Positions 1-22,201 of a DNA stretch of 31,688 nt are shown here, in pieces. The stretch comes from Corallococcus exiguus (GTDB lineage: Bacteria > Myxococcota > Myxococcia > Myxococcales > Myxococcaceae), in NCBI RefSeq assembly GCF_051058965.1, contig NZ_CP183924.1. One strand, written 5' to 3'. Position 1 is the stretch's first letter. Each line of letters begins with the position of its first letter. The position numbers were made by a program, and so were the translations under genes. The notes below the pieces were generated by a model. The model did not search any database. It worked only from the letters and a program-made list of their open reading frames with translations, and had not been told where the DNA came from.

Positions 1-315
1 GGGTACACCGCCCGTGGCATTGGGGTGTCTCACGCCGATCTTTGGAATCCCCTGTGAGTTCGCGTAGCCCAGCTCGTAGTCAATCCATGGGCTGTTGTGC
101 GCTACGTCGCCGACCACGACGATCAACCCCCTGCAGGGTCCCATGATTCGCTGTATTTCTGCTTTGATGGCGGAAGGACCTCCTGCGGAGGCGTCGTTCT
201 CCACGACGGTTGGCGTGGCCTCGACGCGGCCCCCAAGGCCTGCGAAGAGATTGCGCATGTCGTTCTGGTAGCCCTTCTCCTGGAAGTTGAAACTGATGAA
301 GACCCTCTTCGCCAT
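1..315 (-). CDS. TIR-like (DUF1863 / ThsB-type) domain protein, 5' part only; the gene runs off the window start
   Basis: Reverse complement of 1..315 reads from an ATG (complement of 313..315) as MAKRVFISFNFQEKGYQNDMRNLFAG...RGLIVVVGDVAHNSPWIDYELGYANSQGIPKIGV with no stop. The VFISF start strand and the SPW..YELGYA motif are characteristic of the DUF1863/TIR-like flavodoxin fold. It is missing from the ORF track only because it is truncated by the window edge. Confidence 0.7.
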   Translation of the reverse strand, partial: MAKRVFISFNFQEKGYQNDMRNLFAGLGGRVEATPTVVENDASAGGPSAIKAEIQRIMGPCRGLIVVVGDVAHNSPWIDYELGYANSQGIPKIGVRHPNATGGVP

Positions 316-439
316 ATGCGCTCCATGTGGTGACCGTTTGCCCCGCAGTGCACCACTCTATCCAGGTTGGCTTCGCCCCTGGTGACGGCTCCAGGGCTGG
401 CGCATGATTTCCATCAAACCCGTGGCAAGCCGGAGCGCT

Positions 440-1414
440 TCAGTTCCCCAGGGGCCCGATGAGGCGTTGCCAGAGATACTCGGCGGCCTCCTCGGCCGTC
501 AGGTGCGAAGGATCGAGGGAGCGGGTGCCGGCAGGACTCGTGGCCCCCAGATGCATCAACGCCTTCAGATGAAGCCCTTCCGAACTGTCCTCGGCCACGA
601 GCACGTCGTTGTATGCGGAGTCCTGGTCAAAACTGAACCCCAGGTCCGCGTAGTACGCGATCTGTGGATTTCGCCCCAGGTCCCTGGTCAACCAGATCTT
701 GGCCTGGCAACGAAGCTTGCCGTCGACGTACACCTGAGCAATGAACTTCGTCTCGTTGACCTTCTGGAGCTCGGTCTCGATGCGCGCGTCAACTTGACGG
801 AGGCCTTCCATCCATTGCGTGAACCTGAGTTGGATGGTTCCGAAGCTGCCCTTCGTGAACCGCTGCACCTCCAGGTCATTCGCTTTCCTCGGCAGCCTGG
901 GAAGATAGGGCGCCGAAACGGGTGCCTGCTGGCGCGCAGTCCCTGGGAAACTGGGATGGCTCGACCCGCTTCTGGGTGATGCCCTGCCGGGGAATGGTGG
1001 CGGCATCGCCGGCTTCGCACGCTGCACATTCAGCCCGTCAAGCAGGCCCTGCCGCGCCGCACCCTCATCATTTCCGACCAGGTCGATGAAGGTGATGGCC
1101 TTCAACAGGCCCGGCGGCGAACAGGGCTCGACACGCACCGGTACTACCTTGTGCTGGAGCCCTGCCGGGTCCTCCGCGAATACCGCCGCCCACTCAGTGC
1201 TCGCAAAGTCCGAACGCGCGAAGGCCTCCGAGAGGACAAGAAGGATGCGTCGGCACTGCTGAACGGCTTGGTGCATCTTGAGGACGAAGTTCGAACCGGG
1301 CCGGAAGTCCCATGCCTGAAACTCGACGGAGAAGCCAGCCTCCTCGAGCGCCCAGGCCATCCACTCCGCCCAGGCCTTGTCCGTCCCGGTGTAGCTGATG
1401 AAAAAGTCCTTCAT
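440..1414 (-). CDS. TIR domain protein with an uncharacterised C-terminal domain of about 180 aa
   Basis: 324-aa ORF with an ATG start. The N-terminus MKDFFISYTGTDKAWAEWMAWALEEAGFSVEF...ILLVLSEAFARSDFASTEWAAVF is a textbook bacterial TIR (FISY..D..WA.W, LVLSE..S.W). The C-terminal half (EVQRFTKGSFGTIQLRF...DVLVAEDSSEGLHLK) matches no family I recognise. Confidence 0.85.
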   Translation of the reverse strand: MKDFFISYTGTDKAWAEWMAWALEEAGFSVEFQAWDFRPGSNFVLKMHQAVQQCRRILLVLSEAFARSDFASTEWAAVFAEDPAGLQHKVVPVRVEPCSPPGLLKAITFIDLVGNDEGAARQGLLDGLNVQRAKPAMPPPFPGRASPRSGSSHPSFPGTARQQAPVSAPYLPRLPRKANDLEVQRFTKGSFGTIQLRFTQWMEGLRQVDARIETELQKVNETKFIAQVYVDGKLRCQAKIWLTRDLGRNPQIAYYADLGFSFDQDSAYNDVLVAEDSSEGLHLKALMHLGATSPAGTRSLDPSHLTAEEAAEYLWQRLIGPLGN

Positions 1415-1462
1415 GATCCCTTGGTGACCCCTCAGAAAAGCGATTGGCCGGAAACACCCACA

Positions 1463-2407
1463 CTACTTGGACGAGAAGGGGTCCTCGGGGAATGAGCGCC
1501 CCGCCACGGTGACGCTGAAGTCTCCTCCCTGGGCGGGGTCCATCCAGTCATCGAGGTTCGTGTCCACCTCGCATCCCGCCTGCATGAGTTTCTTGCGAAG
1601 CGTGCGCCTTGAGTCGATGCCATTGGTGAGGCGGATGTGGAGGATGCCGTCCAGGTCGGACGGCAGCTCGACATTTCCCACGGTAACCATGATTGTGCCA
1701 TCGCGGTTCAGCCCCATGGCCATCCCTGCCTCGTAGATGACATTGGGCCGTGGCTGCCAACGCCGGATGTTCCGCTCCGACTCGGCGGCTTCACGCCGTT
1801 CGGGGACGAGGCATGCGAATTCGTCCGGGGTCAGCAGGGCGATGACGGCACGGGTCTTCGATACCCCGCGGGCGACAATCTCCACAATGGGGGTGTTGGA
1901 AATCGATTCGTGAAACTCGTCCACGAACGTCCAAGCCTGGAGGCCCAGGCCCTTCAGGAAGTGCCTCAGTTCCTGCAGGGGGGCTCTATCCCTGCCATGA
2001 ATGATGAAGACCTTCTTGCCATCCTTCTGCGGGAGCGCCACCGGAACCACGGGCTCTGGCTTCGACAGGGGCTCCAAGGCGCCGGGGCCCTTCGGCTCCG
2101 GCTCGCTCTCGTCCTCCCCCAGTTCCAGGATCCGCTCGATGAACGGCGCCCTTTCGCGGCCACGATCGTCCAGATCGAGCGCGATGCAGACGGCCTTCAG
2201 TTCGTCGCGAGAGAGCATCTCAAGGACGTCGGCGAAGTCGACCGACCTGGAGCGGACGATGGCGGCGACGTGCTGCTCGTAGATGCGGCGATCTTCCACG
2301 GGCAGGCCGAACTCGTCCGTAATCTCAGAGAGTCGCTCCCGGCTGAGTTCCTGAAGAGCGGCCCTTCGTACTGCTGGAGGAAGCCGGCGTTTACCTTTCA
2401 AGGTCAT
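1463..2407 (-). CDS. CAP12/Pycsar-type TIR-like nucleotide-binding protein (COG4271 / PF10137-like) with an N-terminal helical domain
   Basis: 314-aa ORF with ATG at 2407, preceded by GGAGG. The C-terminal half KKVFIIHGRDRAPLQELRHFLKGLGL...RPNVIYEAGMAMG matches the 'KVFIVHGhD ... RpNVifElGy' signature of the TIR-like nucleotide-binding family. The N-terminal 120 aa end in LSRDELKAVCIALDLDDRGRERAPFIERILEL, which resembles a SAP/Rho_N-type helix-extended-helix motif; that assignment is inference. Confidence 0.75.
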   Translation of the reverse strand: MTLKGKRRLPPAVRRAALQELSRERLSEITDEFGLPVEDRRIYEQHVAAIVRSRSVDFADVLEMLSRDELKAVCIALDLDDRGRERAPFIERILELGEDESEPEPKGPGALEPLSKPEPVVPVALPQKDGKKVFIIHGRDRAPLQELRHFLKGLGLQAWTFVDEFHESISNTPIVEIVARGVSKTRAVIALLTPDEFACLVPERREAAESERNIRRWQPRPNVIYEAGMAMGLNRDGTIMVTVGNVELPSDLDGILHIRLTNGIDSRRTLRKKLMQAGCEVDTNLDDWMDPAQGGDFSVTVAGRSFPEDPFSSK

Positions 2408-2651
2408 TACCTCCGGACGCTACCAGAGGCTTTTGGCGGGGCGCACGTTCTCCACGCGGGGGCAGGGCCGCCCGGGGCGTCCAGGAACGCCGCCTACCCC
2501 GCCGGATTCCGAAGCACGTGACTATGAATCCGTCCTCGCCCGGCGAGTCGCAAGGAACTGGAGGGCGCAGCTGCTATCGGTCCTTCAGCGAGCATGGAAA
2601 CGAGTGGTCGGATAGTCTTCCCGGGCAACCAGGTCGGATGGAGGGGCTGGC
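2408..2651. promoter_or_regulatory. Divergent intergenic region between the minus-strand TIR operon and the plus-strand MBL-CHAT-STAND-TIR operon; presumed bidirectional promoters
   Basis: 244 bp without credible coding, flanked by divergently oriented gene starts, each with a Shine-Dalgarno-like GGAGG. I did not identify specific -35/-10 boxes. Confidence 0.35.
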
Positions 2652-3734
2652 ATGTTTCGAATCGAGATGCTTCCGGCGCACCACGGGGACTGCCTGCTGC
2701 TGAGCTACGGGGAGGAGGCCCGCCCCCGGCGCATCCTCATCGACGGCGGAACCCCGTCCTCCCTGCCCCTGCTGCGCAAGCGCCTCGAGCGGATTCCCGC
2801 TGGCGAGCGGCACTTCGAGCTCCTCGTCATCACCCACATCGACGACGACCACATCGGCGGCGTCCTGAAGCTGCTCCAGCAAACCGACCTGGGCATCACG
2901 TGGGGCGACGTCTGGTTCAATGGGTGGAAGCACCTCATTCCCCAGGCACCGGTCCCCAAGCTGCGAGGCTGGCTCAGTGCCAGGCAGGGCGAGGACCTGT
3001 CCGAGCTGCTCGTGCGGCTGGACCTCCCGTGGAACAAGGCCTTCGATGAGGCCACGATTGTCATCCCCGACAGCGGGCCGCTGCCCGTGCTTGAGCTGCC
3101 CGGCAAGCTCCGGCTGACCCTGCTCTCGCCCACCCGCGAGCGGCTGGAAAAGCTGGACCGGGAGTGGACCGACACCCTCATGCGCCAGGGCATCATCCCG
3201 GGCGAGGCCGCGGCTCAGGCCCGGCCCACGCGGCGCTGGCTGGGCGGCGATATCGAACTGGCGGGGTATGACCTGAAGACGTTCCGCTCGGACACCTCGG
3301 TGGCCAACGGCAGCAGCATCGCGCTGCTGGCGGAGTACGAGGGCCGCCGCTGCCTGCTCACGGGAGATGCCTTCGCCCCCGTCCTGGCCGCGAGCCTCCA
3401 GCGCCACCCCGCTTTCGATGAGCGCACCGGCAAGCTGGCGGTGGACGCCACCAAGCTGCCCCATCATGGCAGCAGCGCGAATATCAGCCCCGACCTGCTC
3501 GGCCTGCTCTCCTGCGGCCGTTACCTCATCTCGACGAATGGTGACGTGTTCGAGCACCCGGACGTCGAGGCCGTGGGGCGAGTCATCACCCAGGGCGGGT
3601 CCTCAGCCGAGCTGTTCTTCAACTACCGCGCTGAGACCACCCGGGTCTGGGAGCGGGCCTCGATGCAGCGCAGGTATGGGTACCGGGCACGCTACCCGGA
3701 CGATGCTGACTCCGGCATCGTGCTCGACCTCTGA
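2652..3734 (+). CDS. MBL-fold metallo-hydrolase (ComEC-type H-x-D-x-D-H variant motif), putative nuclease or hydrolase effector
   Basis: 360-aa ORF with GGAGG 8 nt upstream of the ATG. MLPAHHGDCLLLSY...ILIDGG...LLVITHIDDDHIGGV is the beta-lactamase-fold N-terminal sheet plus metal-binding motif 2. Here that motif reads HIDDDH, not the canonical HxHxDH. Its stop lies 15 nt before the CHAT start. Confidence 0.85.
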   Translation: MFRIEMLPAHHGDCLLLSYGEEARPRRILIDGGTPSSLPLLRKRLERIPAGERHFELLVITHIDDDHIGGVLKLLQQTDLGITWGDVWFNGWKHLIPQAPVPKLRGWLSARQGEDLSELLVRLDLPWNKAFDEATIVIPDSGPLPVLELPGKLRLTLLSPTRERLEKLDREWTDTLMRQGIIPGEAAAQARPTRRWLGGDIELAGYDLKTFRSDTSVANGSSIALLAEYEGRRCLLTGDAFAPVLAASLQRHPAFDERTGKLAVDATKLPHHGSSANISPDLLGLLSCGRYLISTNGDVFEHPDVEAVGRVITQGGSSAELFFNYRAETTRVWERASMQRRYGYRARYPDDADSGIVLDL

Positions 3735-3749
3735 CCCCAGCCGTCCCTG

Positions 3750-5735
3750 GTGAGGCCCATGCGAACCCTGCGCACCATCACGCTCGAGTTGCTCCGGCAC
3801 GGTCCCCCGCACAACCAACTCCTCTCCCCGCTCACACCCTACCTCGCGCTGTGCGGCGGCCACGGCGCGCAGACGCTCTATCTGCCTTTCGAGCACCGGG
3901 AGTTCCAGCTCCGCCTGCGCACGCTTCGCTCCATCGCGGCGACCGCCGACGCGGATGAGTCCCGTCGCGCCTACCTGTGCGAGGTGGGCCAGCGACTCTC
4001 CGAGCTCATGGGGGGCATCCCCGGCCTCATCGCGGGCCTGGGCGTGGAACCCCGGGAGCCGGAGGGGCTGATCCACCTGCAGCTCGTCACCTCCGCGGCG
4101 GAGCTGGCCCTGCTGCCCTTCGAAGCGGTGCTCTCCCCCAAGGGGGCGCCCGGGGAGGGCCAGCCCCTGGCACTGCAGACGGACCTGCCCGTGAGCATCA
4201 CGCGGCAGGTGCGGCGCCCCACTTCCGAGAGCGTGCCCTGGCCCACGCGGCCGCGAATCCTGTTCGCCATCGCCGCGCCGGACGGCCTGGAGGTCCCAGC
4301 GGAGCAGCACGAGAAGGCACTGCGCGAGGCCATCGCCCCCTGGGTGTGGCCTTCCGGGGAGGGCTCCGCCGGGGACAACTCGGGCGAGCTGCTGACAGTG
4401 TTGCGGAACGCGAGCCTGGAAAAGCTGCGCAAGGCGTGCGAGGAGCGGGAGTATACCCACGTGCACCTGCTGGCCCACGGCAAGCCCCTGCCGGGCCTCT
4501 GGAATGAACGCTTCGGCCTCATCCTCCACGACGACGCGCAATCCCAGAACGAGCGCGTCGTCCCAGGAGAGCTGCTGGCCACGGCGCTGCGTGGCCACAC
4601 CCGAGGCGTGAAGGGACGGCTGTCCCACCCCTCGGTTGTCACCATCGCGAGCTGCGACAGCGCGAACCGGGGCTCTGTCATCGAGCCTGCGGGCAGCCTC
4701 GCCCACGCACTGCATGAAGCCGGCATTCCCTTCGTCATCGCCTCGCAGAACCCACTCACCGATAACGGTTCGGTGGTGATGACGAGCGCGCTCTACACCC
4801 AGCTCCTCTGGGGAGCGGACCCCCGCGTCGTGCTACACGACGTCCGGCAGCAACTGCGGTTGCACGACGAGCCCGTGCACGACTGGGCGAGCCTGGTCGC
4901 CTACGCCGCCTTCCCTGCGGACTTCGACGCGCAACTGCGGCGCACGCGCATTCAGAGTGCCATCGACGCAGTGAAGGCCACGCTGAGTCGCGGAGAACGC
5001 AGCCTCTCTGGCGGCGCGGCTTCTCCCGAGGTCCTCCAGCAGGCGCGGGAGGATCTGGAGCAGACCAAGCAGCGGCTCGAAGCCGCAAGCCCCACCGGGA
5101 GCGATGCGAACGCGCACGAGCTCCGGGCGGAAATCCAGGGGCTGTGTGGAAGCATTGACAAGCAGCTCGCCCAATTCCTCGACCGGGGCCTCCCCTCGGA
5201 GCCCGGAGGCTCATCCGAGGCGGAGCGCAAGGCGCTGCTCGCGCGGGCGAAGGCGCATTACTGGCGCGGCCTCCTGGAGAGTCCCAGCTCGCACTGGCAG
5301 GCCACCCAGTACCTCGCCCTCTGCGGGGTGCTGGAGGGCAGCATCCCCAGGGAGCAGTATGCGTATGCCTGCCAGGTGGCGAGGTTTCCGCGAGACACCG
5401 GCACGTTGAACGAACGTATCTGGGCGCTCAGCAGCCTCGCGGAGCTCAAGCTTCTGAGTGCCCTACTGCCCGGAGCGGATCCCCGGAAGGCGGTACGGCG
5501 GGCGAAGCGCTACGTCCGGAAGCTGCTGCGGGCCTCGACGCCGGGCTCCTTCGAGGTGGTCTCCACGCGCCGCCAGTTCGAGCATTACACGACGTGGTGG
5601 AAGTCGTGGTGCCCGCGGCTCGCGGAGCCGGCCATGCAGATCCTGGAGGAGTTCCAGCAAGTCACCGAACCGCCCCCGGCCGCACAGGATGCGGGACCGG
5701 AGGTGCCTCCCGAGGAGCGCAAGCCCCGCACCTGA
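3750..5735 (+). CDS. CHAT domain (caspase-like) protease with a C-terminal helical/TPR-like region
   Basis: 661-aa ORF. ELALLPFEAV, then the histidine block YTHVHLLAHGKP (about 4458..4481), then the cysteine block VVTIASCDSANRG (about 4650..4658). These give the His/Cys dyad in the order and spacing typical of CHAT. The C-terminal 250 aa are helical (AKAHYWRGLLESPSSHWQATQYLALCG). Confidence 0.85.
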   Translation: MRPMRTLRTITLELLRHGPPHNQLLSPLTPYLALCGGHGAQTLYLPFEHREFQLRLRTLRSIAATADADESRRAYLCEVGQRLSELMGGIPGLIAGLGVEPREPEGLIHLQLVTSAAELALLPFEAVLSPKGAPGEGQPLALQTDLPVSITRQVRRPTSESVPWPTRPRILFAIAAPDGLEVPAEQHEKALREAIAPWVWPSGEGSAGDNSGELLTVLRNASLEKLRKACEEREYTHVHLLAHGKPLPGLWNERFGLILHDDAQSQNERVVPGELLATALRGHTRGVKGRLSHPSVVTIASCDSANRGSVIEPAGSLAHALHEAGIPFVIASQNPLTDNGSVVMTSALYTQLLWGADPRVVLHDVRQQLRLHDEPVHDWASLVAYAAFPADFDAQLRRTRIQSAIDAVKATLSRGERSLSGGAASPEVLQQAREDLEQTKQRLEAASPTGSDANAHELRAEIQGLCGSIDKQLAQFLDRGLPSEPGGSSEAERKALLARAKAHYWRGLLESPSSHWQATQYLALCGVLEGSIPREQYAYACQVARFPRDTGTLNERIWALSSLAELKLLSALLPGADPRKAVRRAKRYVRKLLRASTPGSFEVVSTRRQFEHYTTWWKSWCPRLAEPAMQILEEFQQVTEPPPAAQDAGPEVPPEERKPRT

Positions 5736-5832
5736 AGCGGGCACCGCGCGGGGAGCTGGGAAAACTCCGACGTGCCTGCGGCCGGCAGGGCCACGACGAG
5801 GGCCATGAGGGCATCATCCTTCCGCCCCTGGC

Positions 5833-6063
5833 GGACATGAGCGCGTCCATCAGCGCCGTGGGCGAGTGCTCCCCGTCATCCAGGGGGGAGGAGTCGAGGA
5901 AGGCCAGACCCGAATCGCCACCGAGTGCTTGGTGCAGGGCTTCAGCCTGTGGACGGCTCGCATCTCGCGCGTAGGAGATGAAGACGGAATGGAAGCGCGG
6001 AGGGGTCACTTCCGATGGATGTCCCACCTCACTCCTTGAATCCAGCGGAACCTGGGTGGCCAT
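5833..6063 (-). pseudogene. TIR domain remnant (N-terminal ~55 aa of a TIR fold only, degenerate afterwards)
   Basis: Minus-strand ORF 5662..6063 contains RFHSVFISYARDASRPQAEALHQALGGDSGLAFLDSSPLDDGEHSPTALMDALMSAR. This gives the start strand FISYARD, alphaA, and a FLD...L..GE loop of a TIR, but then degenerates into RMMPSWPSSWPCRPQARR and runs into the 3' end of the CHAT gene. I read it as a truncated or frameshifted TIR gene fragment. Confidence 0.4.
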
Positions 6064-6154
6064 ATTGAACCCACCGGCCAGCCAGGTTCAACAAGGCACT
6101 GGCATGCATTCCGCTCGCGGAATGCGCGTCAGCCCCGAAGGATATTCCGCCCCC

Positions 6155-10008: not shown

Positions 10009-10833
10009 ATGCGGGTGTTCATCAGTTGGTCCGGGGAGAGGAGCAGGGCCGTGGCCACGGCCTTGAAGACGTGGCTGTCGGACGTCTTCCACGATGTGGA
10101 GCCCTGGATGTCCGAGCACGACATCGACGCGGGCATGCAGTGGGGCACCCATCTCAGCCAGCAACTGGAGGCCGCGAACTTCGGCATTCTCTGCCTGACG
10201 CCGGACAACCTCGCCTCGCCGTGGCTGCTCTTCGAGGCCGGCGCGCTCTCCAAGTTCATTAAGTCGGCACGTGTCGTCCCCTACAGGCTGGAGCTCAAGG
10301 CGACGGACGTCAGCTTGCCCCTCGCTCAGTTCCAGGGGGTTGATGCGGATGAGTTGGGGACGCTCAAGCTCCTGCAGAGCCTCAACGGCACCCGTGAGGC
10401 TCTACTCACTGACGAACGACTCAAGAAGCTGTTTGACAAATGGTGGCCCGACCTGAAGCTTGCCCTGCAAGCCGTTCCCCCTTCCAGAGGAGTGCCCGCC
10501 CCCAAACGGACCGACAGGGCCTTGCTGGAAGAGATCCTTCAGTTGGTCCGACAGCAGGCCCAGGCATCCACCGATACGCCAATACACAATGAAGACACGA
10601 TCTACGGCCCTCCTCCGACTGACACCTCAGCCGAGTCCCAAAGAGTGCTGAGTGTGCCCTTGCCGCCGAACGAGCCCGGGAACTTGCGCGGGATGCGCGT
10701 ACGCCACGCGCAGTTTGGCCTTGGGACCATTGCTGACGTGGAAGGAGCGGGAGCCAATGCCAAGGTCACGGTGAGGTTCAGTGGGCCAGTGGGTCTCAAA
10801 AGAGTTATCGCCCAATTCCTTCAGCCCGCCTGA
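10009..10833 (+). CDS. TIR domain protein (TIR_2-like) with a small C-terminal domain
   Basis: The track ORF opens at TTG 9952. The better start is ATG 10009, preceded by GGGAGGAG at -7: MRVFISWSGERSRAVATALKTWL...GILCLTPDNLASPWLLFEAGAL. FISWSGE.S and SPW..FEaGal are TIR_2 signatures, and the conserved Glu sits in FEAG. The C-terminal 90 aa (RGMRVRHAQFGLGTIADVEG...VRFSG) are unassigned. Confidence 0.85.
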   Translation: MRVFISWSGERSRAVATALKTWLSDVFHDVEPWMSEHDIDAGMQWGTHLSQQLEAANFGILCLTPDNLASPWLLFEAGALSKFIKSARVVPYRLELKATDVSLPLAQFQGVDADELGTLKLLQSLNGTREALLTDERLKKLFDKWWPDLKLALQAVPPSRGVPAPKRTDRALLEEILQLVRQQAQASTDTPIHNEDTIYGPPPTDTSAESQRVLSVPLPPNEPGNLRGMRVRHAQFGLGTIADVEGAGANAKVTVRFSGPVGLKRVIAQFLQPA

Positions 10834-14143: not shown

Positions 14144-14285
14144 GGTGCCGCACAGCGTACATTGTTCCGCGGCCTTCGGTGCACGCCAGCGCCGGGAACG
14201 GTGGAGGGGAGCTTCTATCGCTGGGTCGCGAAGTTTAGCGTCACCCACTTCTGTGGACGCCCCCGATGTGATGGAAGGGTGTTCG

Positions 14286-14597
14286 ATGTCGGAGCGCGAG
14301 AAGAAGAGGCGGCCGCGACGTAGCTTCAGCCCGGAGTTCAAGTCCGGGCCGGTGAAGTTGGTGCTGGAGGAGAGCAAGTCCGTTGCGGAGGTGGCGAGGG
14401 ACTTGGACCTGACGGAGACGGCCTTCCGTCGGTGGGTGGAGCAGGTCCGAACGGACCGGGGCCAGGGCAAGCCAGGCGCCCGCACCAGCGAGGACCGGGT
14501 GGAACACTCCCAGTTGCGCAAGCGCGTGCGGCAGCTGGAAATGGAGAAGGAGCGCCTAAAAACTGCGGCGGCCTTCTTCGCGAAGGAGATGAAGTGA
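14286..14597 (+). CDS. IS3-family transposase OrfA (HTH + leucine-zipper)
   Basis: [53 protein letters not shown]...[28 protein letters not shown] is the conserved IS3/IS911 OrfA pattern (R..YS.EFK...V.......VA.......L..WV). GGAAGGG lies 7 nt upstream of the ATG at 14286. The track ORF extends upstream to 14121 with no domain support. Confidence 0.75.
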
Positions 14598-14893
14598 AGT
14601 TCCGCTTCATCCACGTGGAGAATGCATCCCTGTCAGCCGCCTTCCTTTGTCGCCAACTGGGTGTCTCCCGTTCGGACTACTACGCCTGGGCGAAGCGGCC
14701 CGAGTCTCAGCGGCGTCAGCGCGACCGCGAGCTGTCCGAGGAAGTGGCGGCTATTCACCGGCAAAGCCGAGGTACCTACGGCAGCCCCCGTGTCCATGCC
14801 GAGCTGCGCGCGCGGGGCCGCCGCGGCTCGTCATCCACCTGGCTCCGTCGCGAACCAGTTCTTCTCGACACTCGCCTCGGACGTCGAGGCTGA
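14432..14893 (+). pseudogene. IS3-family transposase OrfB, N-terminal fragment (HTH_21 plus the start of the integrase core, then degenerate)
   Basis: In the -1 frame relative to orfA: [75 protein letters not shown] matches the OrfB N-terminus. After ARG it reads [13 protein letters not shown], not the expected V.HKRV.RLM motif, and no DDE core follows. Confidence 0.6.
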
Positions 14894-14937: not shown

Positions 14938-17900
14938 TCAGTCGAGCGCGGCCCGCACGTCCCAGATACGCACGACGTGGTCTCCTCCTGCCGTGAGGAT
15001 GCGTCCGCCATCTGGACTGAATCCAACCGAGGTCACCCCACCGGACCGACTGGAAAGGCCCACACGAAGCTCGCGCGCCGCGAGGTCCCTGATGAGCGTT
15101 GTCCCGTCCTCCTGCCCCACCACACAGTGCCGCCCGTCCGGGCTGAAGCTGGCCGCTGTCAACGCCCTCGTCGTTCGAGACGACATGACGATCCCCCCGG
15201 TGTCGGCATTCCAGATGTTCAGGTTGCCATCCGCACCTGCTGTCACAATGCGTGTTCCGTCCGGACTGAAGCTGGCCGCATGGACCCGGCCTTGGTGTCC
15301 CGAGAGGCGGGCCAGATTCCTCCCCGAGCGGACCTCCCAGAGAAGCACGCTGCCACCGTCGCCTCCGGTGACGAGGCGCTGGCCGTCAGGACGGAAACCC
15401 GCCGTGAACACCGCCTCGGTGTGTCCCGCGAACTCCCCGACGTGCTGTCCGGAGGTCGCGTCCCAAAGATGCACCCCGCCATCACCACTCGCGGTGATGA
15501 TGCGCATCCCATCTGGGCTGAAGCTGGCGGCGTAGACCGTATCCAGAGGACCGTGCAGGCGACCTACAGCTTTCCCAGAGGCGACGTCATAGAGCCAGGC
15601 CCACCCAGTCAGGCCCGCCGCGATGATGCGCTGGCCGTTGGGACTGAAGCTGACAGCGAATACTCCACCCGCCGGCTCTCCGGTCATGAGTACCAGGGAG
15701 GCACCGGTCCCCGCATCCCAGAGTTCCACGGAGTTACCATCGTTCCCGGTGACGACCCGCCCACCATCCGGGCTAAAGCTCGCAACGAGGGCATCAGTCG
15801 CCAGCTCAGTGACGAGCCTGGGCTGGCCCCCTCGCTTCCAGGTACGAAGCGCAGAAAGTGAGCCCAGCAACCGCTCCATCTGCTGCGCTGTTTCCTCCGC
15901 CTGGGCATGGCCGATGGAGCGTCGATATTTGACGAGGACTTCCAGCAGTTTCCTCACGCCCTCCGGAATGCCTTGCATTGCTCGCATCTGGCCGAGCCCC
16001 CATGAAGCCAGCGCGATGCCTCGGTCGTCACGCCATGAGCGAGCGACCTCAAGCGCTTCCTCATAGTGCGCCGCAGCCAGACGCGGTCCGTGTTGCTCCT
16101 CCGCGAGCGAGGCAGAGGCAAGCAGGGCATCCACTTCGAGTTGGATGTCCCCTTCGATTGCTGCCTTCGCTCGGGCGCTCCGAAAACCCTCGGCAGCCGC
16201 ATCCTTCCTGCCATCCTGCCGGTCGAGACGAGCAATCATGTAGTCGGCCTCGGCGCTCACCTCCCCATGGGCAAGCTCTTGCTCGGCGATCCTTAGTAGC
16301 AGCGAGTGGGCCTCATCCCAGTCGCCCTGTTCCGACAGGAACCGCACCAGCTTGACGCCCCCCCCTGCCGACGACCCGGGTTTGAAACCCACCCCCATAA
16401 AGGCCTCGCGGCACGACTTCACCGCCTCCTTCCCTTGTCCGAGCTGTGACTGAGCGACGGCTAATTCGAGAAGGAAGAACGCTTGTTCCAAACCGTACAC
16501 ACGGGTGTGCGATGATTCCACCAGAGGCTTGAGCAATTGCTCCCTCTCGCGTGGCGTCCAGCGCAGGCGGAATAGCCACGGGACTTGCATCACCGGAGCG
16601 CGGAGGAGCGACGGCACTCTGTCGGGAGGTCCATGTTGAATCCACCATCTGAGCGCCCTGTCGATGTTCAGGCGCTCCTCGTCGAGCGCCATGATAGCCG
16701 CAGCTCGCTCCTGCCCCTGGGGCTTATATCTTTCAGTAAGGCCGGTGAAGAACTCCAGGAAGTATGTGGCATGCCGCAGGGCCGCCTTCTTCAGGTCAGG
16801 AAACTCCTGCTCAGGCTCCGTAATCAGCCGCACCGGCCACCACAACGTATAGCGACCCGCTCCAGCGACACGAATCAGGCCCGCCTCTAGCATTCGCTGG
16901 GCTGTCAGCGGCCCCCAGTACCCTTCACTCGGCTCCTTTGCAGGAGGGCTCGTCTTGTCGAGTACCACCACATCGGCGGCTCGCAGGTCAAAGCTCTCCG
17001 GAAACACGGCGAGCCAGCGGGCACGATTCAACAGTGCGGCATAGAGCCCGATTCGAGTTCCCGATCTCACCCTGGCCAGCACCGCGCCAATTTCGCGCAG
17101 AGGTGTGGCGAGAAAATGGCAAATTTCGGCGAGCTCAACTGCCACGTCACCCACCCCTGGTGCGACTTCGGTCAGCAGGTGTACCGCGGCGAGGGGCGTA
17201 AGCGGCGCGAGCCTTATTGACTCGAACCTTTCTTTGATGAGGAGCGGCGCACGGGAAGTCACCATGAGGAACCCGGAGCCCCCCTGAGGGCGCAGCTGGG
17301 CGATTTCCTCCGAGATGTCACTGGAGCCCCAGCGCCACGTATCTACGTCTTCCAAGACGAGCGCCAGCCGTCGCTCGGACAGCAGATAGTGGAAGTGCGA
17401 GAGCCAGTCCCTCCGAGAACCGACCTGCTCTGGCGCAATCGCCTCAACCACCCTCCGTGCCACAACCTCTGCAGACATCACCGGACCGTTCGGAAGTCTT
17501 TCGATCTGAAAGCACCCATAGGGAAAATCGTGAGCTATCCGTGCGAGCACCTGCCGGGCCCATTGCGTCTTGCCGACGCCGGGCTCGCCCGTGACGTTGA
17601 TAAAAACAACTCCACCGCGAATCAACCTCCCGAGCAAATCGGCCTGCTGCTCGTGCAGCATGGGGCCATCCTCAGGCGGTGGAAGCAGGAGCAACGCAGC
17701 CGGCTCGGCGGGGGCGATGAGGTACTCATCTCCCTGCAACGTGCGCAGGCGCAGAAAGCCGGACACGAAGGGAAGCTGGAGGTGCTCTTGCGGGCGGAAC
17801 TCGAGTCTTCGCCATCGCGTCTCGTGGAGGGGAAACTCGTTCAGCAGCACAAGCAGGTGCTGAATAGTGAGTTGCTCGTTCTCGGGCCTGGCCGTGAGCC

Positions 17901-19053
17901 ATTGCCTCGCGGGCACCAGCGAGATCATCCGCTCCCAGGGAGGCTCTTTGGACGCTCGCTCCGGGAGTACGTACACCGGAATGAAGAGGACTTCCGAGCG
18001 CCGCGTCTTTAGCTGTTCCTCAATGGAGGAGACCTCGTCGGCGAAAGCGCGGGATTCGAGCGCACTTTCGGAGACCAGCAGGACGAAGACATCCGCCTGG
18101 ACGAGCCAGCCCTCGATTTGTGCCCGCCACGAAGCCCCCGGCTTGAATTGCAGCGCTTCGAGCCCCGGGAAGACCTGGTGTTGCGTCCGCTGCAGCCCTT
18201 CCCGGATGGCATGGGCCAACTGCGGCACGGGGCCCCCCGAGGCCACGTAGCTGATGAAGATGCTCCGTGGATGCGGTGACGCCGCCTCCCCCTCTCCGCC
18301 ATCCGCCATGTCCAGCACCAGCGGCTCGGTTCGGGGGACCTCGATGGTGGTCTCCGCTCGGCCGGCCACCGGGCCCAACTCCACGAAGCCAGGGAACAGC
18401 CTCACGCCCACCTGGACTCGCTCCAGCCCCTGTGTGGCCATTCCCGCCATCCACTCGGGCACGGCCCCTGATGGAGGTGAAGCTGGCAGCAGATCTCCCC
18501 GGAGACGCGCCCGTGCCGCGACCGCCAGCAGACGCCCCTCGTCCAGCTCTCGCAGCTCGGAAGGAATGCGAGCACTGGCGCCCGCGGCCCAGTGCGCCAG
18601 GCTCGTCTTCTCGTTGCCGAAGAGCTCCGCCACCGCCGAACGCAGAAGCCAGCGCGCTCGCACAGGAGCGTTGGCGTCACCGCTGAACTGAAGGTAGTTG
18701 AGTTCTTCTTCCAGGCGCAGCGCCGGTGAGAGCCCCACATGGGCCTCCCTGGTGATGCGCCAGGCCTCGTCGTAGCGCTCACCTCCCCGCGCCACGAGCC
18801 TTTCGCGCAGGATTGCCCCCACGCCCTGTACGAACACGAAGCCTTCGGGGCCGCGGAAAGCGACGAGGCGGCCCAGCCACAGGTCGGCCTCGACGGACGG
18901 CTTCGCTCCAGGCAGCAACTCCAGGCGCAGCCGACGCAGCAGCAGGGAATCCACCCGGACCGCGAACGAGGCCAAGCATGCCAGCTCGAAGGCCTGGGGC
19001 TGCTCCTGAGCGGTCTCCTCGACCAGCAGACGCGCGGCCATGAGCGTCGTCAT
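14938..19053 (-). CDS. Third component of a MoxR-vWA-beta-propeller ternary system: N-terminal ~110-aa adaptor-like domain - TIR - NB-ARC/STAND NTPase - TPR - 7-bladed WD40 propeller
   Basis: 1371-aa ORF with ATG at 19053 and GGAGGAGG 8 nt upstream, inside the end of the vWA gene. TIR: RSIFISYVASGG...VFVLLVSESALESRAFADEV. NTPase: VVFINVTGEPGVGKTQWARQV (Walker A), LALVLEDVD (Walker B), LMVTSRAPLL. A helical TPR-like middle follows. The C-terminus has seven SFSPDG...W(D/N) WD40 units (FSPDGGRVVTGNDGNSVELWD ... FSPDGGRILTAGGDHVVRIWD). The N-terminal MTTLMAARLLVEETAQE...LWLGRLVAFRGPEGFVFVQGV region is unassigned. Confidence 0.85.
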   Translation of the reverse strand: MTTLMAARLLVEETAQEQPQAFELACLASFAVRVDSLLLRRLRLELLPGAKPSVEADLWLGRLVAFRGPEGFVFVQGVGAILRERLVARGGERYDEAWRITREAHVGLSPALRLEEELNYLQFSGDANAPVRARWLLRSAVAELFGNEKTSLAHWAAGASARIPSELRELDEGRLLAVAARARLRGDLLPASPPSGAVPEWMAGMATQGLERVQVGVRLFPGFVELGPVAGRAETTIEVPRTEPLVLDMADGGEGEAASPHPRSIFISYVASGGPVPQLAHAIREGLQRTQHQVFPGLEALQFKPGASWRAQIEGWLVQADVFVLLVSESALESRAFADEVSSIEEQLKTRRSEVLFIPVYVLPERASKEPPWERMISLVPARQWLTARPENEQLTIQHLLVLLNEFPLHETRWRRLEFRPQEHLQLPFVSGFLRLRTLQGDEYLIAPAEPAALLLLPPPEDGPMLHEQQADLLGRLIRGGVVFINVTGEPGVGKTQWARQVLARIAHDFPYGCFQIERLPNGPVMSAEVVARRVVEAIAPEQVGSRRDWLSHFHYLLSERRLALVLEDVDTWRWGSSDISEEIAQLRPQGGSGFLMVTSRAPLLIKERFESIRLAPLTPLAAVHLLTEVAPGVGDVAVELAEICHFLATPLREIGAVLARVRSGTRIGLYAALLNRARWLAVFPESFDLRAADVVVLDKTSPPAKEPSEGYWGPLTAQRMLEAGLIRVAGAGRYTLWWPVRLITEPEQEFPDLKKAALRHATYFLEFFTGLTERYKPQGQERAAAIMALDEERLNIDRALRWWIQHGPPDRVPSLLRAPVMQVPWLFRLRWTPREREQLLKPLVESSHTRVYGLEQAFFLLELAVAQSQLGQGKEAVKSCREAFMGVGFKPGSSAGGGVKLVRFLSEQGDWDEAHSLLLRIAEQELAHGEVSAEADYMIARLDRQDGRKDAAAEGFRSARAKAAIEGDIQLEVDALLASASLAEEQHGPRLAAAHYEEALEVARSWRDDRGIALASWGLGQMRAMQGIPEGVRKLLEVLVKYRRSIGHAQAEETAQQMERLLGSLSALRTWKRGGQPRLVTELATDALVASFSPDGGRVVTGNDGNSVELWDAGTGASLVLMTGEPAGGVFAVSFSPNGQRIIAAGLTGWAWLYDVASGKAVGRLHGPLDTVYAASFSPDGMRIITASGDGGVHLWDATSGQHVGEFAGHTEAVFTAGFRPDGQRLVTGGDGGSVLLWEVRSGRNLARLSGHQGRVHAASFSPDGTRIVTAGADGNLNIWNADTGGIVMSSRTTRALTAASFSPDGRHCVVGQEDGTTLIRDLAARELRVGLSSRSGGVTSVGFSPDGGRILTAGGDHVVRIWDVRAALD

Positions 19054-19057
19054 GCGC

Positions 19058-20023
19058 TCACCTCCTCCGGGACATCCCGCGCGCGGCCCGTACCATTGTC
19101 AGCGTCCAGTCCCATTCGAACACCTGCATCGCCGGCTCCAGTCCATGAGGCCAGCGCTCGGATGGGTAGGGAACCAGCGCCGCCACGGCCCCTCCCGCGC
19201 GGCGCACCCTCCCAATGAACTCCGCCCACTCCTCCAGCAGGGCGGGCGCATCACCAGGCGGCGGCATGCCAATCCCCAGGTCCGTCACGCACAGCACCCG
19301 CGTCCCCGGACGCGGCAGCCGCTCGGAACCGTAGGGCTTCCACCTGCGCCGCCCCCCACGGCCGCACCCACGGGTCGGACATGCGACGAAGTGCAGGACC
19401 TCGGTTCCTGCCCCCACGAGTTGGGAAATCTCCTCCTCCAGGCTGGCCACATCCCGCAGGAAGGGCAGCATGGCATCGCTGCGGTCCAGCAGAAGCTGTA
19501 CGCCATGTGCCAGCGTGGGGCGCAACCGGCGAGGAAGGCTCACCAGGACCTGCCCCCGTGCAATGGTCCGGACGATGGCTTCCAGGTCAGCACCGCCCTC
19601 CCCCGGGGTCGCGAGCAGCGCGCTTAGAAGTGCCCGGGAGCGCTGAGGTGCCAGGAGCGTATCCAGCACTGGAGCCGGGGCTGCCGGACGCGGCAGCGAC
19701 GAGAGACGACGCTCCGCCTGCAACCAGGACGGCGGAGGAGGAGGTGACCGCTTGAGGCGAGAAATGACCACTGGGAGAGCGCGCTCTTCGGATGCCGTCG
19801 AAACCTCGGGAGCGCGCCCTGATGGAGCCGATGGCACGGGACGCGGTGGCAAGGCCAGAAGTGGCTGCGGAAGCGACGTACTGGCGGGCTCGACCATGGC
19901 CATGGCGGACCTGCCGCCCAGTACGAGCGTGGCCATGGCTTTGCGCGTCGCTTCATCCGCGGGCATCAAGCAATCGAATGCACGCGCCAAGTCGCTCAGG
20001 GGGGAGGCGAAGCCGCGACTCAT
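19058..20023 (-). CDS. vWA-like (VMAP-type) protein with a Pro-rich N-terminal linker; MIDAS motif partly degenerate
   Basis: The ORF is open to a GTG at 20053. However, the ATG at 20021..20023 (MSRGFASPL) forms a classic ATGA overlap with the MoxR stop (20020..20022), so I favour it. The C-terminal half has a vWA-like strand and loop pattern: VQLLLDRSDAM (DxSxS-like, with the last Ser replaced by Ala) and VLCVTDLGIG (the hhhhTDG strand). Its position immediately after a MoxR ATPase is the canonical MoxR-vWA pairing. The fold assignment is inference. Confidence 0.55.
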   Translation of the reverse strand: MSRGFASPLSDLARAFDCLMPADEATRKAMATLVLGGRSAMAMVEPASTSLPQPLLALPPRPVPSAPSGRAPEVSTASEERALPVVISRLKRSPPPPPSWLQAERRLSSLPRPAAPAPVLDTLLAPQRSRALLSALLATPGEGGADLEAIVRTIARGQVLVSLPRRLRPTLAHGVQLLLDRSDAMLPFLRDVASLEEEISQLVGAGTEVLHFVACPTRGCGRGGRRRWKPYGSERLPRPGTRVLCVTDLGIGMPPPGDAPALLEEWAEFIGRVRRAGGAVAALVPYPSERWPHGLEPAMQVFEWDWTLTMVRAARGMSRRR

Positions 20024-20970
20024 CTTCCCGGCTCCTTCCGCCCATGCTTCCACACAGCGGCTTCCAGCACCTTCTGGAACGCGGCACTGTCGGGTGACAT
20101 CCTCAGCGCCACACAGCCGCGCAGGACATCCACGTACTCGGCGGGGCTGACCGAGGGCGGCTCGCCGTCTGGCAACATGGCCGTGGCCACGGCGACGAGA
20201 AGCGCGTCATCCAGCCCCGTGAATTGCGCCCGTCCCACCTCGATCAGTCGTTCCCGACTGGGGTACTCCAGCTTGAGCTCGATGCAGCGACGCAGGAACG
20301 CACCCGGCAGTTCGCGCTCGTCATTCGTCGTGACGAAGATGAGCGGGGGCCCACGGGAGGAGACCTCCACGAGCTGCCCGGTCTCCTCCACCTGGAACTG
20401 AAGGGAGCCCAGGGGGACGAGGAGGTTGTTGGGCGTGTCGGGGTCGGCCTTGTCTATCTCGTCAATGAGGACGACGGCACGTGGGCACGTGTCGTCCTGG
20501 CCGGACTCCTGAGCGCGCATGACGCGTCCAGCGGAGCTGCTGGCATGCTGCTTCCTGGCGCTCGCCTCATCGAACGCCCACCACAGGGGACCTGGCACCA
20601 CGTAGGGGCCGTAGCCCGGGTCGAACCTGCGCTTCGGGCTCTGTGCATCGTGGAGGCGGCGCAGATGGTCCACCTGCCAGAGCATGTCCCTCGCCTGGGT
20701 CCGAGAGGTGACGACCTGCTCGTAGTAGCGAAAGCCGAGGACCTTCGCCGCGCTCCGGGCCAGTGAGCTTTTGCCAGTCCCGGACGGCCCCCGCACCAGG
20801 AGCGGGCGTCCGGTTGCCAGCGCTATGTTGACCGCGAGGATGATCTGGTCGGTATACACATACGTCACCACGCGACGCTGGTCGCCTGCGGCAGGGGGCA
20901 GCTCGGCCGCATGCTCGACTGGCTTCGGGTCGAAAAGCTTGTGGTACGTGAGCGCGGTGATTTCGGACAT
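20020..20970 (-). CDS. MoxR-family AAA+ ATPase (AAA_5 / CbbQ-NorQ-like)
   Basis: 316 aa with ATG at 20970. LLVRGPSGTGKSSLARSAAKVLG (Walker A), AVVLIDEIDKADPDTPNNLLVPL (Walker B, DE), and FVTTNDERELPGAFLRRC (sensor and Arg finger). Its size and motifs are typical of single-domain MoxR ATPases. Confidence 0.85.
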   Translation of the reverse strand: MSEITALTYHKLFDPKPVEHAAELPPAAGDQRRVVTYVYTDQIILAVNIALATGRPLLVRGPSGTGKSSLARSAAKVLGFRYYEQVVTSRTQARDMLWQVDHLRRLHDAQSPKRRFDPGYGPYVVPGPLWWAFDEASARKQHASSSAGRVMRAQESGQDDTCPRAVVLIDEIDKADPDTPNNLLVPLGSLQFQVEETGQLVEVSSRGPPLIFVTTNDERELPGAFLRRCIELKLEYPSRERLIEVGRAQFTGLDDALLVAVATAMLPDGEPPSVSPAEYVDVLRGCVALRMSPDSAAFQKVLEAAVWKHGRKEPGR

Positions 20971-20983
20971 GACTTGACGATCC

Positions 20984-22201
20984 TCACTTCATCAGCTTCA
21001 GGTACTTGAGCTTCTTCTCGTAGAGCGTCCAGAAGGGCTGCTCTATCTCTGGCGCCAGCAACGGCTGCAGCAGCACGATTCCCGCCTCTTCCACCTGGTC
21101 CTTCGGAGGAATATCGCTCCCTGTCAGGAAGAAGAAGGTGACTCCCCTGAACTCCGCGCGAAGGGCATCCATCGCCGCCTTGTCCACTCCGCAGAGTGGT
21201 AGAGCCACGAAGACGGGCTCCGCTTCACTCCTCAGGAGTTCGAGGAGCTCGGGTACGTCGTCAGGAGAAACCTTGAGCTCGTAGGCCAGGGCCGTGCGCA
21301 CCATGCCCTTCAGCTCATCGATGCCCCCGCTCCCCACCACCCCATCGACCTTCGCGACGCGCCAGGAGTCATTCGCGGGGAGATCGCACGCGCCAACCAC
21401 GTACAGCCACGCCGTCCGCGGGTCGTCGCCATTCAGCGCAAGCACTCCGGGCTGCTTTTCGACCTTGCGAATCTCCGCCACCGAGCGGAAGTCCACCCAG
21501 GAGGTCGCGATGAGGGTCATGACCTCCTCGAGGGTGGCAACGCTTGGGAGCCGTGAGCGGAAGGCCCGAACGCCCTGGGTGGCCTGCTCCAGCCCCACCG
21601 CCATCAAGCCCAGTGCGACCTTCATCGGCAGGTCCGTGTCGAGAACCCAGGGGGCCAGGAGCGCGCCGACCTTGTCGGCAGCTGCTTCCAGGTCAGCGGA
21701 ATTCACGTCCTTGAGCAAGCCGCACAGCCGTCGTGCGTGGCGCTCGGCGGCGGAATCCGAGGACACGTGCGATTCCAGGTAGTCAATGATGCGCTGGATG
21801 GCCTCGTCTCGTGGGACATCTCCGCGGATGGCCTGGACGTCGGCGATCCGCGCGGGCTCCAGCGGACTCTCCTCGACCTGCTTCTCCGTCACCGGCGCGA
21901 GGTAGACGGGGATGAGGATGAAGCGGCCCCGCTCGTTCCCATGCCGGTAGGCCAGCACGCTGGCCTCATACGCGACGTAGCGTGACTGCAAGGCCGCTGA
22001 CGACACCAGCAGCACCGCGGCATCACACCCGCCAATCCAGGCATTGAGCGTGGAGCGCCAATCCTGGCTCAACTCGAACTCGTCCTTGTCGAGGAGCACC
22101 CTGTAGCCTTCATCGCGCAGACGCTGCGCAAGCTCGTCGCGAAACTGCTCACCCGCCGGCTCCTTCGACGAGTGGCTGATGAAGATCCGTGGGCGCGGCA
22201 T
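20984..22201 (-). CDS. TIR domain protein with a C-terminal domain of about 270 aa and unknown function; first gene of the MoxR-vWA operon
   Basis: 405 aa with ATG at 22201. MPRPRIFISHSSKEPAGEQFRDELAQRLRDEGYRVLLDKDEF...AVLLVSSAALQSRYVAYEASVLAY...FILIPVYL is a clear TIR with the conserved Glu in AYEAS. The remainder is alpha/beta and unassigned. Its stop lies 11 nt before the MoxR start. Confidence 0.85.
   Translation of the reverse strand: MPRPRIFISHSSKEPAGEQFRDELAQRLRDEGYRVLLDKDEFELSQDWRSTLNAWIGGCDAAVLLVSSAALQSRYVAYEASVLAYRHGNERGRFILIPVYLAPVTEKQVEESPLEPARIADVQAIRGDVPRDEAIQRIIDYLESHVSSDSAAERHARRLCGLLKDVNSADLEAAADKVGALLAPWVLDTDLPMKVALGLMAVGLEQATQGVRAFRSRLPSVATLEEVMTLIATSWVDFRSVAEIRKVEKQPGVLALNGDDPRTAWLYVVGACDLPANDSWRVAKVDGVVGSGGIDELKGMVRTALAYELKVSPDDVPELLELLRSEAEPVFVALPLCGVDKAAMDALRAEFRGVTFFFLTGSDIPPKDQVEEAGIVLLQPLLAPEIEQPFWTLYEKKLKYLKLMK

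Follow-up and report, generated by a model that had tools for sequence, protein, structure and literature searches.

Eight TIR-superfamily genes in a probable mosaic defence island beside a tRNA-Sec fragment in Corallococcus exiguus

Introduction

The tRNA-Sec gene selC is a well-known insertion site for enterobacterial islands (LEE, PAI-I, SHI-2). TIR domains are established as enzymes that cleave NAD+ when they oligomerize, causing NAD+ depletion or yielding signals derived from ADP-ribose (ADPR), and islands with 6–7 ThsB genes have been documented as rare cases (Yirmiya et al. 2025 preprint, 10.64898/2025.12.03.692087). Two 2026 preprints have shown DUF4062 to be a TIR-like NADase, used as an effector by Avs/NLR-like proteins and in other systems (10.64898/2026.05.01.722283; 10.64898/2026.09.04.749371). 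In TERNS3 systems, a protein joining TIR (or another domain) to TERNS3 is followed by MoxR, a separate vWA protein and vWA-L fused to effectors (Kaur et al., eLife 2021, PMC8195603); we found this family described from computation only. Here, we describe a 31,688-nucleotide (nt) stretch of the Corallococcus exiguus genome (contig NZ_CP183924.1), called the window throughout, with a G+C content of about 65% and an accumulation of TIR-superfamily genes in positions 1..22201.

We conclude that positions 1..~22560 are probably the distal part of a strain-specific mosaic defence island downstream of tRNA-Sec (selC), composed of about six independent modules. The TIR density would have arisen because modules sharing one chemistry, NAD+ cleavage by an oligomerization-activated TIR or TIR-like domain, were assembled by recombination and transposition at an integration hotspot; it is likely to reflect neither local duplication nor an island-wide TIR complex. 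An earlier sequence-only reading of this DNA had drawn attention to the TIR genes. We confirm that observation, and its interpretation is partly supported, in that the locus is a hotspot, but not in its proposals of TIR-specific capture, island-wide combination of TIR domains or decoys.

Results

TIR gene content and density

Positions 1..22201 contain 12 intact genes and one small open reading frame (ORF) fragment. Eight of the intact genes, as well as the fragment, belong to the TIR superfamily (Pfam clan STIR, with the flavodoxin-like TIR fold) and represent four Pfam families: ThsB_TIR, TIR_2, CAP12-PCTIR_TIR and DUF4062. TIR_2 is the family of 440..1414, 10009..10833, the NACHT protein, the WD40 protein and 20984..22201. 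The sequence-only reading had listed seven TIR or TIR-like ORFs and a remnant. Profile searches placed all seven in TIR families, above the Pfam gathering cut-offs, and the remnant proved to derive from the N-terminus of a TIR; the list was an undercount, with the DUF4062 gene at 6155..9955 being the eighth intact member. In an alignment, the glutamate at the catalytic position, which follows an ‘S..W/F’ motif, is kept in all seven canonical TIRs and absent from the remnant. Its retention argues against the suggestion that some of these domains are inactive decoys.

To set this density against a background, we sampled 80 loci anchored on relatives of the TIR_2-Y4lF-type TIR in species-representative genomes and counted the 49 that were at least 15 kb long (~20 kb), using jackhmmer profiles seeded with the window’s own TIR domains against all stop-to-stop ORFs. 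One TIR ORF was present in 44 loci, two in two loci, three in one and four in two, as compared with eight in the window by identical profiles. The background rate of extra TIR genes is 0.0103 per kb, which gives a Poisson P of ~5e-9 for at least seven extra TIR genes in 22.2 kb. The CAP12 and DUF4062 matches in the window were found by their own sequences alone; when only the six TIRs found by cross-family profiles are counted, P = 4e-6. The claim of an unusual concentration therefore holds, at eight against at most four, though Myxococcaceae relatives are also rich in TIR genes. Loci fetched for other reasons carry six in Corallococcus exercitus (L017), five in Myxococcus landrumensis (L001) and four in Myxococcus fulvus (L003). 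The window is the extreme end of a family-level tendency and is not unique within the Myxococcaceae.

Origin of the TIR genes

All-against-all BLASTP of the nine TIR segments found no pair more than 35% identical, and only three pairs reached E < 1e-3. The sole clearly related pair comprises the TIRs of the 1371- and 405-amino-acid (aa) proteins of one operon (32% identity over 117 aa, E 2e-13), and the TIR of the NACHT protein also matches that of the 405-aa protein, hereafter TERNS3-TIR (E 4e-6). These two similarities are what speaks for a paralogue array produced by local duplication and divergence. The remaining pairs show chance-level similarity, four different Pfam families are involved, and the relatives of each gene in other genomes (59–87% identical) are much closer than its island neighbours. 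This gap is seen for the left three genes (85–87%) and the 405-aa protein (58–65%), and the TIR core of the tudor protein is 55–64% identical to relatives elsewhere. Local duplication is thus rejected on the low identity within the island together with the far closer relatives in other genomes, and a paralogue array has next to no chance of being correct. The comparison of TIR segments called for by the sequence-only reading, which had asked whether the domains were local paralogues or independent acquisitions, accordingly decided against local paralogues.

Insertion site and strain variation

Strain comparison supports a hotspot with conserved flanks and variable content. The protein of 20984..22201 is 100% identical to an NCBI C. 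exiguus protein, and seven further window proteins match entries of the XWU937xx series from that genome exactly. Eight island proteins were checked and all are singletons at 90% identity, present in a single C. exiguus genome, with one metagenome twin for the CHAT protein. The flanking acyltransferase (25353..26543) falls in a 13-member cluster that includes many C. exiguus and Corallococcus strains, and the flanking PMT-like glycosyltransferase is present in sister strains at 98% identity. From 22736 to the right, alignments with four other strains run at 98%; three of these strains also align at 87–90% over 22559..22741, and no alignment to other strains was found left of 22559.

The right end of the variable region is marked by a 69-nt 3′ fragment of tRNA-Sec on the plus strand (22673..22741), an att-like direct repeat that is 94–98% identical to the 3′ end of intact tRNA-SeC genes in sister strains. 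It was recognized by a lenient Rfam search (32.9 bits, E 9.5e-5, below the gathering score) and the strain comparison; ARAGORN and default-threshold Rfam scans reported no tRNA in the window. Two sister strains (L012 and L013) have a CMAS methyltransferase gene and an intact tRNA-SeC gene, followed 3.3–4.9 kb downstream by the same 69-nt fragment (repeats at 833-931 and 5676-5858 in L012, and at 2421-2519 and 5688-5870 in L013). The cargo in between (1016-5644 in L012, 3335-5656 in L013) is a cassette of a 450-aa protein, DUF2019 and Imm11, likely a polymorphic toxin-immunity set, to which L012 adds a GmrSD-type restriction gene and a fragment of the insertion sequence (IS) IS66. A third strain (L014) has the same cassette (487-2808) and fragment on a contig that ends before the tRNA position, and the fourth (L016) has a different neighbour. 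The HEAT-repeat gene of those strains is missing from the window, and neither the window nor the sister-strain loci yielded an integrase. The 114 nt left of the fragment, at 87–90% identity as against 98% in the flank, suggest that an old island end was kept while the interior was swapped.

Comparison across related genomes, as the sequence-only reading had recommended, thus revealed a variable hotspot linked to tRNA-Sec, whose content differs between strains, the pattern classically associated with tRNA-linked islands. The further notion that it captures TIR modules in particular did not survive, since no TIR genes were detected in the cargo of the other strains; this cargo indicates a hotspot that is generic for conflict genes. 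A recombination site specifically capturing TIR cassettes, in the manner of an integron, would agree with the att-like tRNA-Sec repeat at the border, with the truncated TIR and the IS remnant inside the island and with a 45-nt repeat at 9853-9899 and 14188-14234. The same profiles, however, detected no TIR genes at this hotspot in the four other strains, three of which hold the Imm11 cassette and one GmrSD. No further tRNA-Sec or cassette-flanking repeats lie between the TIR genes, and the modules are multi-gene, with two genes lacking TIR domains. We regard capture specific to TIR cassettes as highly improbable.

Modules of the island

A mosaic is supported by the finding that five of the six modules (or their core families) occur separately in other genomes and by mobile-element scars within the island, namely an IS3 remnant and a truncated TIR, as well as by uneven G+C content at third codon positions. 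The proposed modules, from left to right, would be (1) a three-gene TIR operon of CAP12-type, TIR_2-Y4lF and ThsB-type genes, (2) a pair of metallo-beta-lactamase (MBL) and CHAT-TPR-S genes, (3) a DUF4062(NIR)-STAND NLR-like protein, (4) a single-gene TIR-tudor protein, (5) a TIR-NACHT protein with transmembrane (TM) segments and (6) a TIR-TERNS3, MoxR, vWA and vWA-L-TIR-STAND-TPR-WD40 operon.

The left operon lies on the minus strand. Its first gene (1463..2407) encodes a 314-aa CAP12/Pycsar-type TIR-like protein (Pfam CAP12-PCTIR_TIR, 73.6 bits, E 2e-20) with an N-terminal helical (SAP-like) region and a PADLOC PDC-S35 match; it is 87% identical to its C. exercitus counterpart. The second gene (440..1414; XWU93707) encodes a 324-aa protein of TIR_2 (114 bits, E 8e-33) and Y4lF (PF27176) that matches the PADLOC ThsB1 model PDLC00420 over its full length. 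The third (<1..315) encodes a ThsB-type TIR (Pfam ThsB_TIR, 39.4 bits against a cut-off of 21.2, E 8e-10; PADLOC ThsB models), with 105 of ~128 codons inside the window; it is cut by the window edge only and is 86% identical in amino acids to the 128-aa ThsB_TIR of C. exercitus. Positions 1..2481 are 87–88% identical in DNA to a C. exercitus locus beside genes of the non-ribosomal peptide synthetase type, and this identity ends at 2481, just upstream of the CAP12-type gene, which defines a module border. In C. exercitus, the operon runs CAP12-TIR (278 aa as called), TIR_2+Y4lF (324), ThsB_TIR (128), MAP3K_TRAF_bd+TPR-S (453) and ThsB_TIR (138), and is followed by a TIR-nSTAND1-WD40 protein and another TIR_2 protein. 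For the operon described here, genes for a MAP3K_TRAF_bd/TPR-S protein and a further ThsB probably follow beyond the window edge. Pyxidicoccus parkwayensis combines, within 8 kb, TIR_2-Y4lF, CAP12-TIR and two TPR-S proteins, one of them 85% identical to that of C. exercitus. We found no description of a TPR-S/TIR operon in the TPR-S literature.

The sequence-only reading had seen 440..1414 as an interchangeable sensor-TIR cassette, which is contradicted by its fixed architecture. The TIR_2-Y4lF family has 541 homologues (E <= 0.001); each of the 120 listed has both domains, and almost all of them match along their whole length. Outside Myxococcaceae, the gene is usually the only TIR gene of its neighbourhood. 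Both <1..315 and 440..1414 are ThsB-type TIR genes, as a Thoeris assignment calls for, and Pfam and PADLOC scans recognized no Thoeris effector (SIR2-SLOG, Macro and others) in the window. None of the scanned window ORFs has a cyclase or CD-NTase domain, so the locus does not qualify as Pycsar or CBASS despite its CAP12 gene. As a separate observation, a TIR_2-Y4lF gene of Bradyrhizobium sp. 143 (L029, 4128-10954) neighbours three ThsB-type TIR genes, among which two caspase (Peptidase_C14) genes are interspersed; a cyclase-domain gene is also present, and the arrangement is similar to type IV Thoeris. This is a hint that such TIR clusters can have caspase-fold proteases as partners, a class that includes the window’s CHAT protein, encoded 1.3 kb from the left operon on the opposite strand.

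The operon at the right end of the island has the gene order of a TERNS3 system, all on the minus strand. Its first gene (20984..22201) encodes the 405-aa protein, TIR+TERNS3-N+TERNS3, for which Pfam gives TIR_2; the Pfam scan matched no TERNS3 model, and the TERNS3 assignment is by homology. A predicted structure of this protein shows TIR, helical and alpha/beta parts. The second gene (20020..20970) encodes a 316-aa MoxR-type AAA+ ATPase (Pfam AAA_5 E 5e-12, bpMoxR E 7e-8), and its stop codon overlaps the start (ATGA) of the third (19058..20023), which encodes a 321-aa stand-alone divergent vWA protein. The fourth (14938..19053) encodes the 1371-aa effector protein, vWA-L+TIR+STAND (NB-ARC-like)+TPR+WD40 (Pfam TIR_2 40.8 bits, E 4e-10; WD40). 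All four hallmarks are therefore present: a TERNS3 5′ gene, an adjacent MoxR gene, a separate vWA gene and a vWA-L-effector gene. This identifies 20984..22201, also previously taken for an interchangeable sensor-TIR cassette, as the TIR+TERNS3 component of a MoxR-vWA ternary system.

The four-gene order is kept in M. landrumensis, P. parkwayensis and M. fulvus, at unrelated sites flanked by transposase genes. Orthologues in these three species are 65% identical for MoxR, 58–65% for the 405-aa protein and 39–43% for the 1371-aa protein; that of M. fulvus has an NB-ARC match, and the C-terminal WD40 propeller of the window protein is absent from all three. The STAND-borne TIR and its catalytic-position glutamate can be aligned in all four species, and the glutamate of TERNS3-TIR (E79) is invariant in 30 homologues. 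The M. fulvus homologue (P0011), 59% identical to the 405-aa protein, matches WP_074954915.1 by length, species and assembly, a protein that published source data list as TIR+TERNS3-N+TERNS3 followed by MoxR; actinobacterial operons ending in ‘vWA-L+STAND+TPRs’ are in the same data (PMC8195603). Four fused homologues (1578–1901 aa) carry vWA and then a segment homologous to residues 15–254 of the 1371-aa protein (E to 4e-35), with STAND and WD40 coming next in at least three of them. The homology of this segment identifies the N-terminus of the 1371-aa protein as vWA-L. The vWA identity of the 321-aa protein is shown by fold comparison only, with no vWA match from Pfam (the protein and 44 relatives), PDB phmmer or profile searches.

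Clustering at 50% leaves 1633 representatives of the divergent vWA family, and no member tested matches the Pfam vWA model; its fusions (among P0302, P0311, P0387, P0425 and P0361) include single chains of vWA, vWA-L, STAND and WD40, as well as TIR with vWA. VMAP-type and beta-propeller-type ternary systems, raised as candidates by the bpMoxR match, were rejected because no VMAP-C was present in 30 family members and no propeller on the vWA protein. Near the TERNS3 operon, within a few kb, M. landrumensis (L001, 6344-9378) and M. fulvus (L003, 19381-21233) have a cluster of ThsB_TIR (130 aa), TIR_2 (390–400 aa) and LD_cluster3 (SLOG-like), a possible Thoeris-like system; the window-edge ThsB is 30–33% identical to its 130-aa ThsB.

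The central genes are more heterogeneous. The MBL-fold protein (2652..3734, plus strand; Pfam Lactamase_B; PADLOC LmuA-like E 1e-69, also Avs1a and RTasMBL models) and the CHAT (caspase-fold protease) and TPR-S protein (3759..5735, plus strand; XWU93710; Pfam CHAT E 3e-29, TPR-S E 1e-6) carry no TIR. The latter is 60% identical to the N-terminus of a P. parkwayensis CHAT+TPR-S gene near TIR_2-Y4lF. G+C content at third codon positions is 0.87–0.90 in this pair (0.90 in the MBL gene), as compared with 0.71–0.83 in the TIR-domain genes, remnant included. Between the CHAT-TPR-S and DUF4062-STAND genes lies the TIR remnant (5827..6063, minus strand, with the TIR at ~5827..5985; Pfam and tblastn). 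It covers positions 1–52 of the 122 in Pfam TIR_2 with 16.3 bits (E 0.015, below threshold) and lacks the region of the catalytic glutamate. Its tblastn matches to myxobacterial TIR sequences, TIR_2 genes of M. landrumensis and M. fulvus (E 4e-6) and a P. parkwayensis stretch (E 1e-7), establish it as a genuine N-terminal TIR fragment. In P. parkwayensis, a similarly truncated, unannotated TIR N-terminus (L018, 13752-13943, minus strand) precedes a MAP3K_TRAF_bd/TPR-S gene, and at the DNA level it is not similar to the window remnant; short fragments of this kind may be scars that arise repeatedly, or they could be small genes.

The DUF4062 protein (6155..9955, plus strand; 1266 aa; XWU93711) consists of DUF4062 (NIR), a STAND NTPase (Pfam nSTAND5, weak) and long helical repeats. 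Its DUF4062 scores 31.7 bits (cut-off 24.7, E 2e-7), NCBI names it ‘DUF4062 domain-containing protein’, and we infer that its ‘SLTEQEY’ motif is equivalent to the catalytic glutamate. The 274-aa TIR-tudor protein (10009..10833, plus strand) combines TIR_2 (48.9 bits, E 1e-12) with a PcrA/UvrD-type tudor (E 4e-9) and matches PADLOC ‘TIR-TM’ (E 1e-59). Its family has 2255 homologues with a conserved TIR-plus-helical core (55–64% identical for P0034-P0153, across Myxococcota, Acidobacteriota, Chloroflexota and others) and varied C-termini, where tudor, ricin lectin, cold-shock (CSD), HTH_8 and HEAT domains are swapped. It is this gene, and not 440..1414 or 20984..22201, that fits the cassette idea. 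Relatives stand alone in both neighbourhoods inspected, and a conserved pairing of DUF4062-STAND with TIR-tudor was not found in these two.

The TIR-NACHT-TM protein (10886..14143, minus strand; Pfam TIR_2 55.7 bits, E 9e-15; NACHT E 9e-9) ends in a hydrophobic C-terminus of several helices, with TM segments read directly from the translation. It probably starts at the GTG at 14143, 143 nt from the start of the IS3 element; the upstream extension of its ORF (10886..14614) is partly antisense to that element and hence probably non-coding. The truncated IS3-family element (14286..14830, plus strand; Pfam HTH_Tnp_1 E 2.5e-14, HTH_21 E 6e-9) separates this gene from the TIR-STAND-WD40 gene. Its orfA (14286..14597) is intact, and orfB is present at its start only, to ~14830, with no DDE domain. 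A repeat of ~45 nt (~90% identity) is found at 9853-9899, inside the 3′ end of the DUF4062-STAND gene, and at 14188-14234, just upstream of orfA, and may have originated as the end of an IS or as a scar left by recombination. Outside the island, the window encodes tandem paralogous secreted Kelch-propeller proteins (26667-30182 and 30784-31688, plus strand) with long Cys-rich arrays of 55- and 110-aa repeats; their orthologues range from 941 to 1408 aa between strains, which points to rapid change in repeat number.

Joint action of the TIRs

The island’s TIRs might alternatively form one network, as hetero-oligomers, in a Thoeris-like design with many ThsB in which several sensor TIRs act on one effector, or by cross-activation of neighbouring modules via common ADPR-derived signals. 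In its favour, Myxococcaceae repeatedly place TIR modules next to one another. In the ternary operon, the two TIRs are each other’s closest relatives and are kept together in four species, the left operon joins three TIR sub-families and is conserved in C. exercitus, and islands with 6–7 ThsB and several effectors have been described (10.64898/2025.12.03.692087). However, the modules are found apart in other genomes, 44 of the 49 background loci have a single TIR gene, and the modules lie on both strands with an IS remnant and a pseudogene between them. The window also holds no cyclase and no known Thoeris effector (SIR2-SLOG, Macro and others). We consider a network unlikely. The combinatorial action suggested by the sequence-only reading thus lacks support across the island, where modules separate in other genomes, and is plausible inside the two conserved multi-TIR operons.

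Within those operons, we make a tentative joint proposal, doubtful as a whole: that CAP12-TIR, TIR_2-Y4lF and ThsB constitute an undescribed multi-TIR system, and that the two TIRs of the TERNS3 system pair homotypically. In the former, a single TPR-S sensor would govern several different TIR enzymes, working one after another or assembled into a hetero-oligomer, and the CHAT protease nearby might provide a caspase-like output. For the latter, Kaur et al. proposed that the MoxR-vWA pair sets an ATP-dependent threshold, that the TERNS3-borne TIR supplies an NAD+-derived signal and that the vWA-L-linked module executes the response (PMC8195603). The executing module in the window is a TIR-STAND-WD40 NLR in its own right, which might allow the two related TIRs to pair homotypically; speculatively, the signal-generating TIR would recruit or activate the NLR-borne TIR in a bacterial analogue of paired plant TIR-NLRs.

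Discussion

We favour a mosaic of independent modules, in which each would sense invaders by its own part (STAND, WD40, TPR or helical repeats, tudor, Y4lF, TPR-S, or the MoxR-vWA threshold device) and activate its own TIR, leading to NAD+ depletion (abortive infection) or an ADPR-derived signal. We infer this module-by-module coupling of sensor to TIR from what is known of these families and of TIR biology.

Several points weigh against the mosaic. The side-by-side recurrence of TIR modules in Myxococcaceae loci (6, 5 and 4 TIR genes) could reflect functional coupling, and two other species have a ThsB/TIR_2/SLOG cluster close to the TERNS3 operon. The background was sampled outside the myxobacteria, and the profiles miss some CAP12-type TIRs, for example one in P. 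parkwayensis (L018). Singleton status depends on the genomes in the database. Finally, the left end of the island, the intact tRNA-Sec and any integrase lie beyond the window, so that the island model draws on the sister strains and one att-like repeat.

The locus is among the densest natural collections of TIR-superfamily immune genes that we could document, with eight intact genes of four families in 22 kb and a defined insertion border in a multicellular, social bacterium. It marks the region around selC as a hotspot of immune genes that vary between Corallococcus strains, and it provides a compact setting in which to ask how many NAD+-consuming or ADPR-signalling systems can be present together without activating one another. 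Experimental work on the TERNS3 MoxR-vWA system and on the conserved, uncharacterized multi-TIR operon could also build on it. Every component belongs to a described family, several of which are known only computationally or from 2025–2026 preprints. The phenomenon is expected from earlier comparative genomics of conflict systems in multicellular bacteria, and therefore extends known biology and does not overturn it.

Comparison with known systems

As in the selC islands of Enterobacteriaceae, variable cargo lies downstream of tRNA-Sec, bounded by a repeat of the tRNA 3′ end and with strain-dependent content. It differs in that no integrase is seen, and in its myxobacterial host and its immune, not virulence-related, cargo. 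As in Thoeris with several ThsB and in multi-Thoeris islands (10.64898/2025.12.03.692087), ThsB-type and TIR_2 proteins share one operon. Unlike Thoeris, neither the window nor the C. exercitus copy has a recognized effector adjacent, the partner in the latter being MAP3K_TRAF_bd/TPR-S; unlike multi-Thoeris islands, the window holds more TIR-superfamily genes (8), from several system types.

The DUF4062 protein shares its N-terminal DUF4062, STAND NTPase and C-terminal repeats with NIR/DUF4062 systems (Avs/NLR-like, Swarozyc, Vulcan, Vesta), but no PADLOC model or named Avs family fits it and its C-terminus is a long helical repeat. In 10886..14143, as in bNACHT and Avs-like TIR proteins, a NACHT NTPase comes after the TIR effector; the protein differs from them in having a multi-pass membrane C-terminus where a soluble repeat sensor is expected, and no PADLOC bNACHT or Avs model matches. 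The ternary operon follows the TERNS3 gene order (PMC8195603) of TIR+TERNS3, MoxR, vWA and vWA-L-effector, and departs from it in an effector protein that carries a second TIR before STAND and ends in a WD40 propeller.

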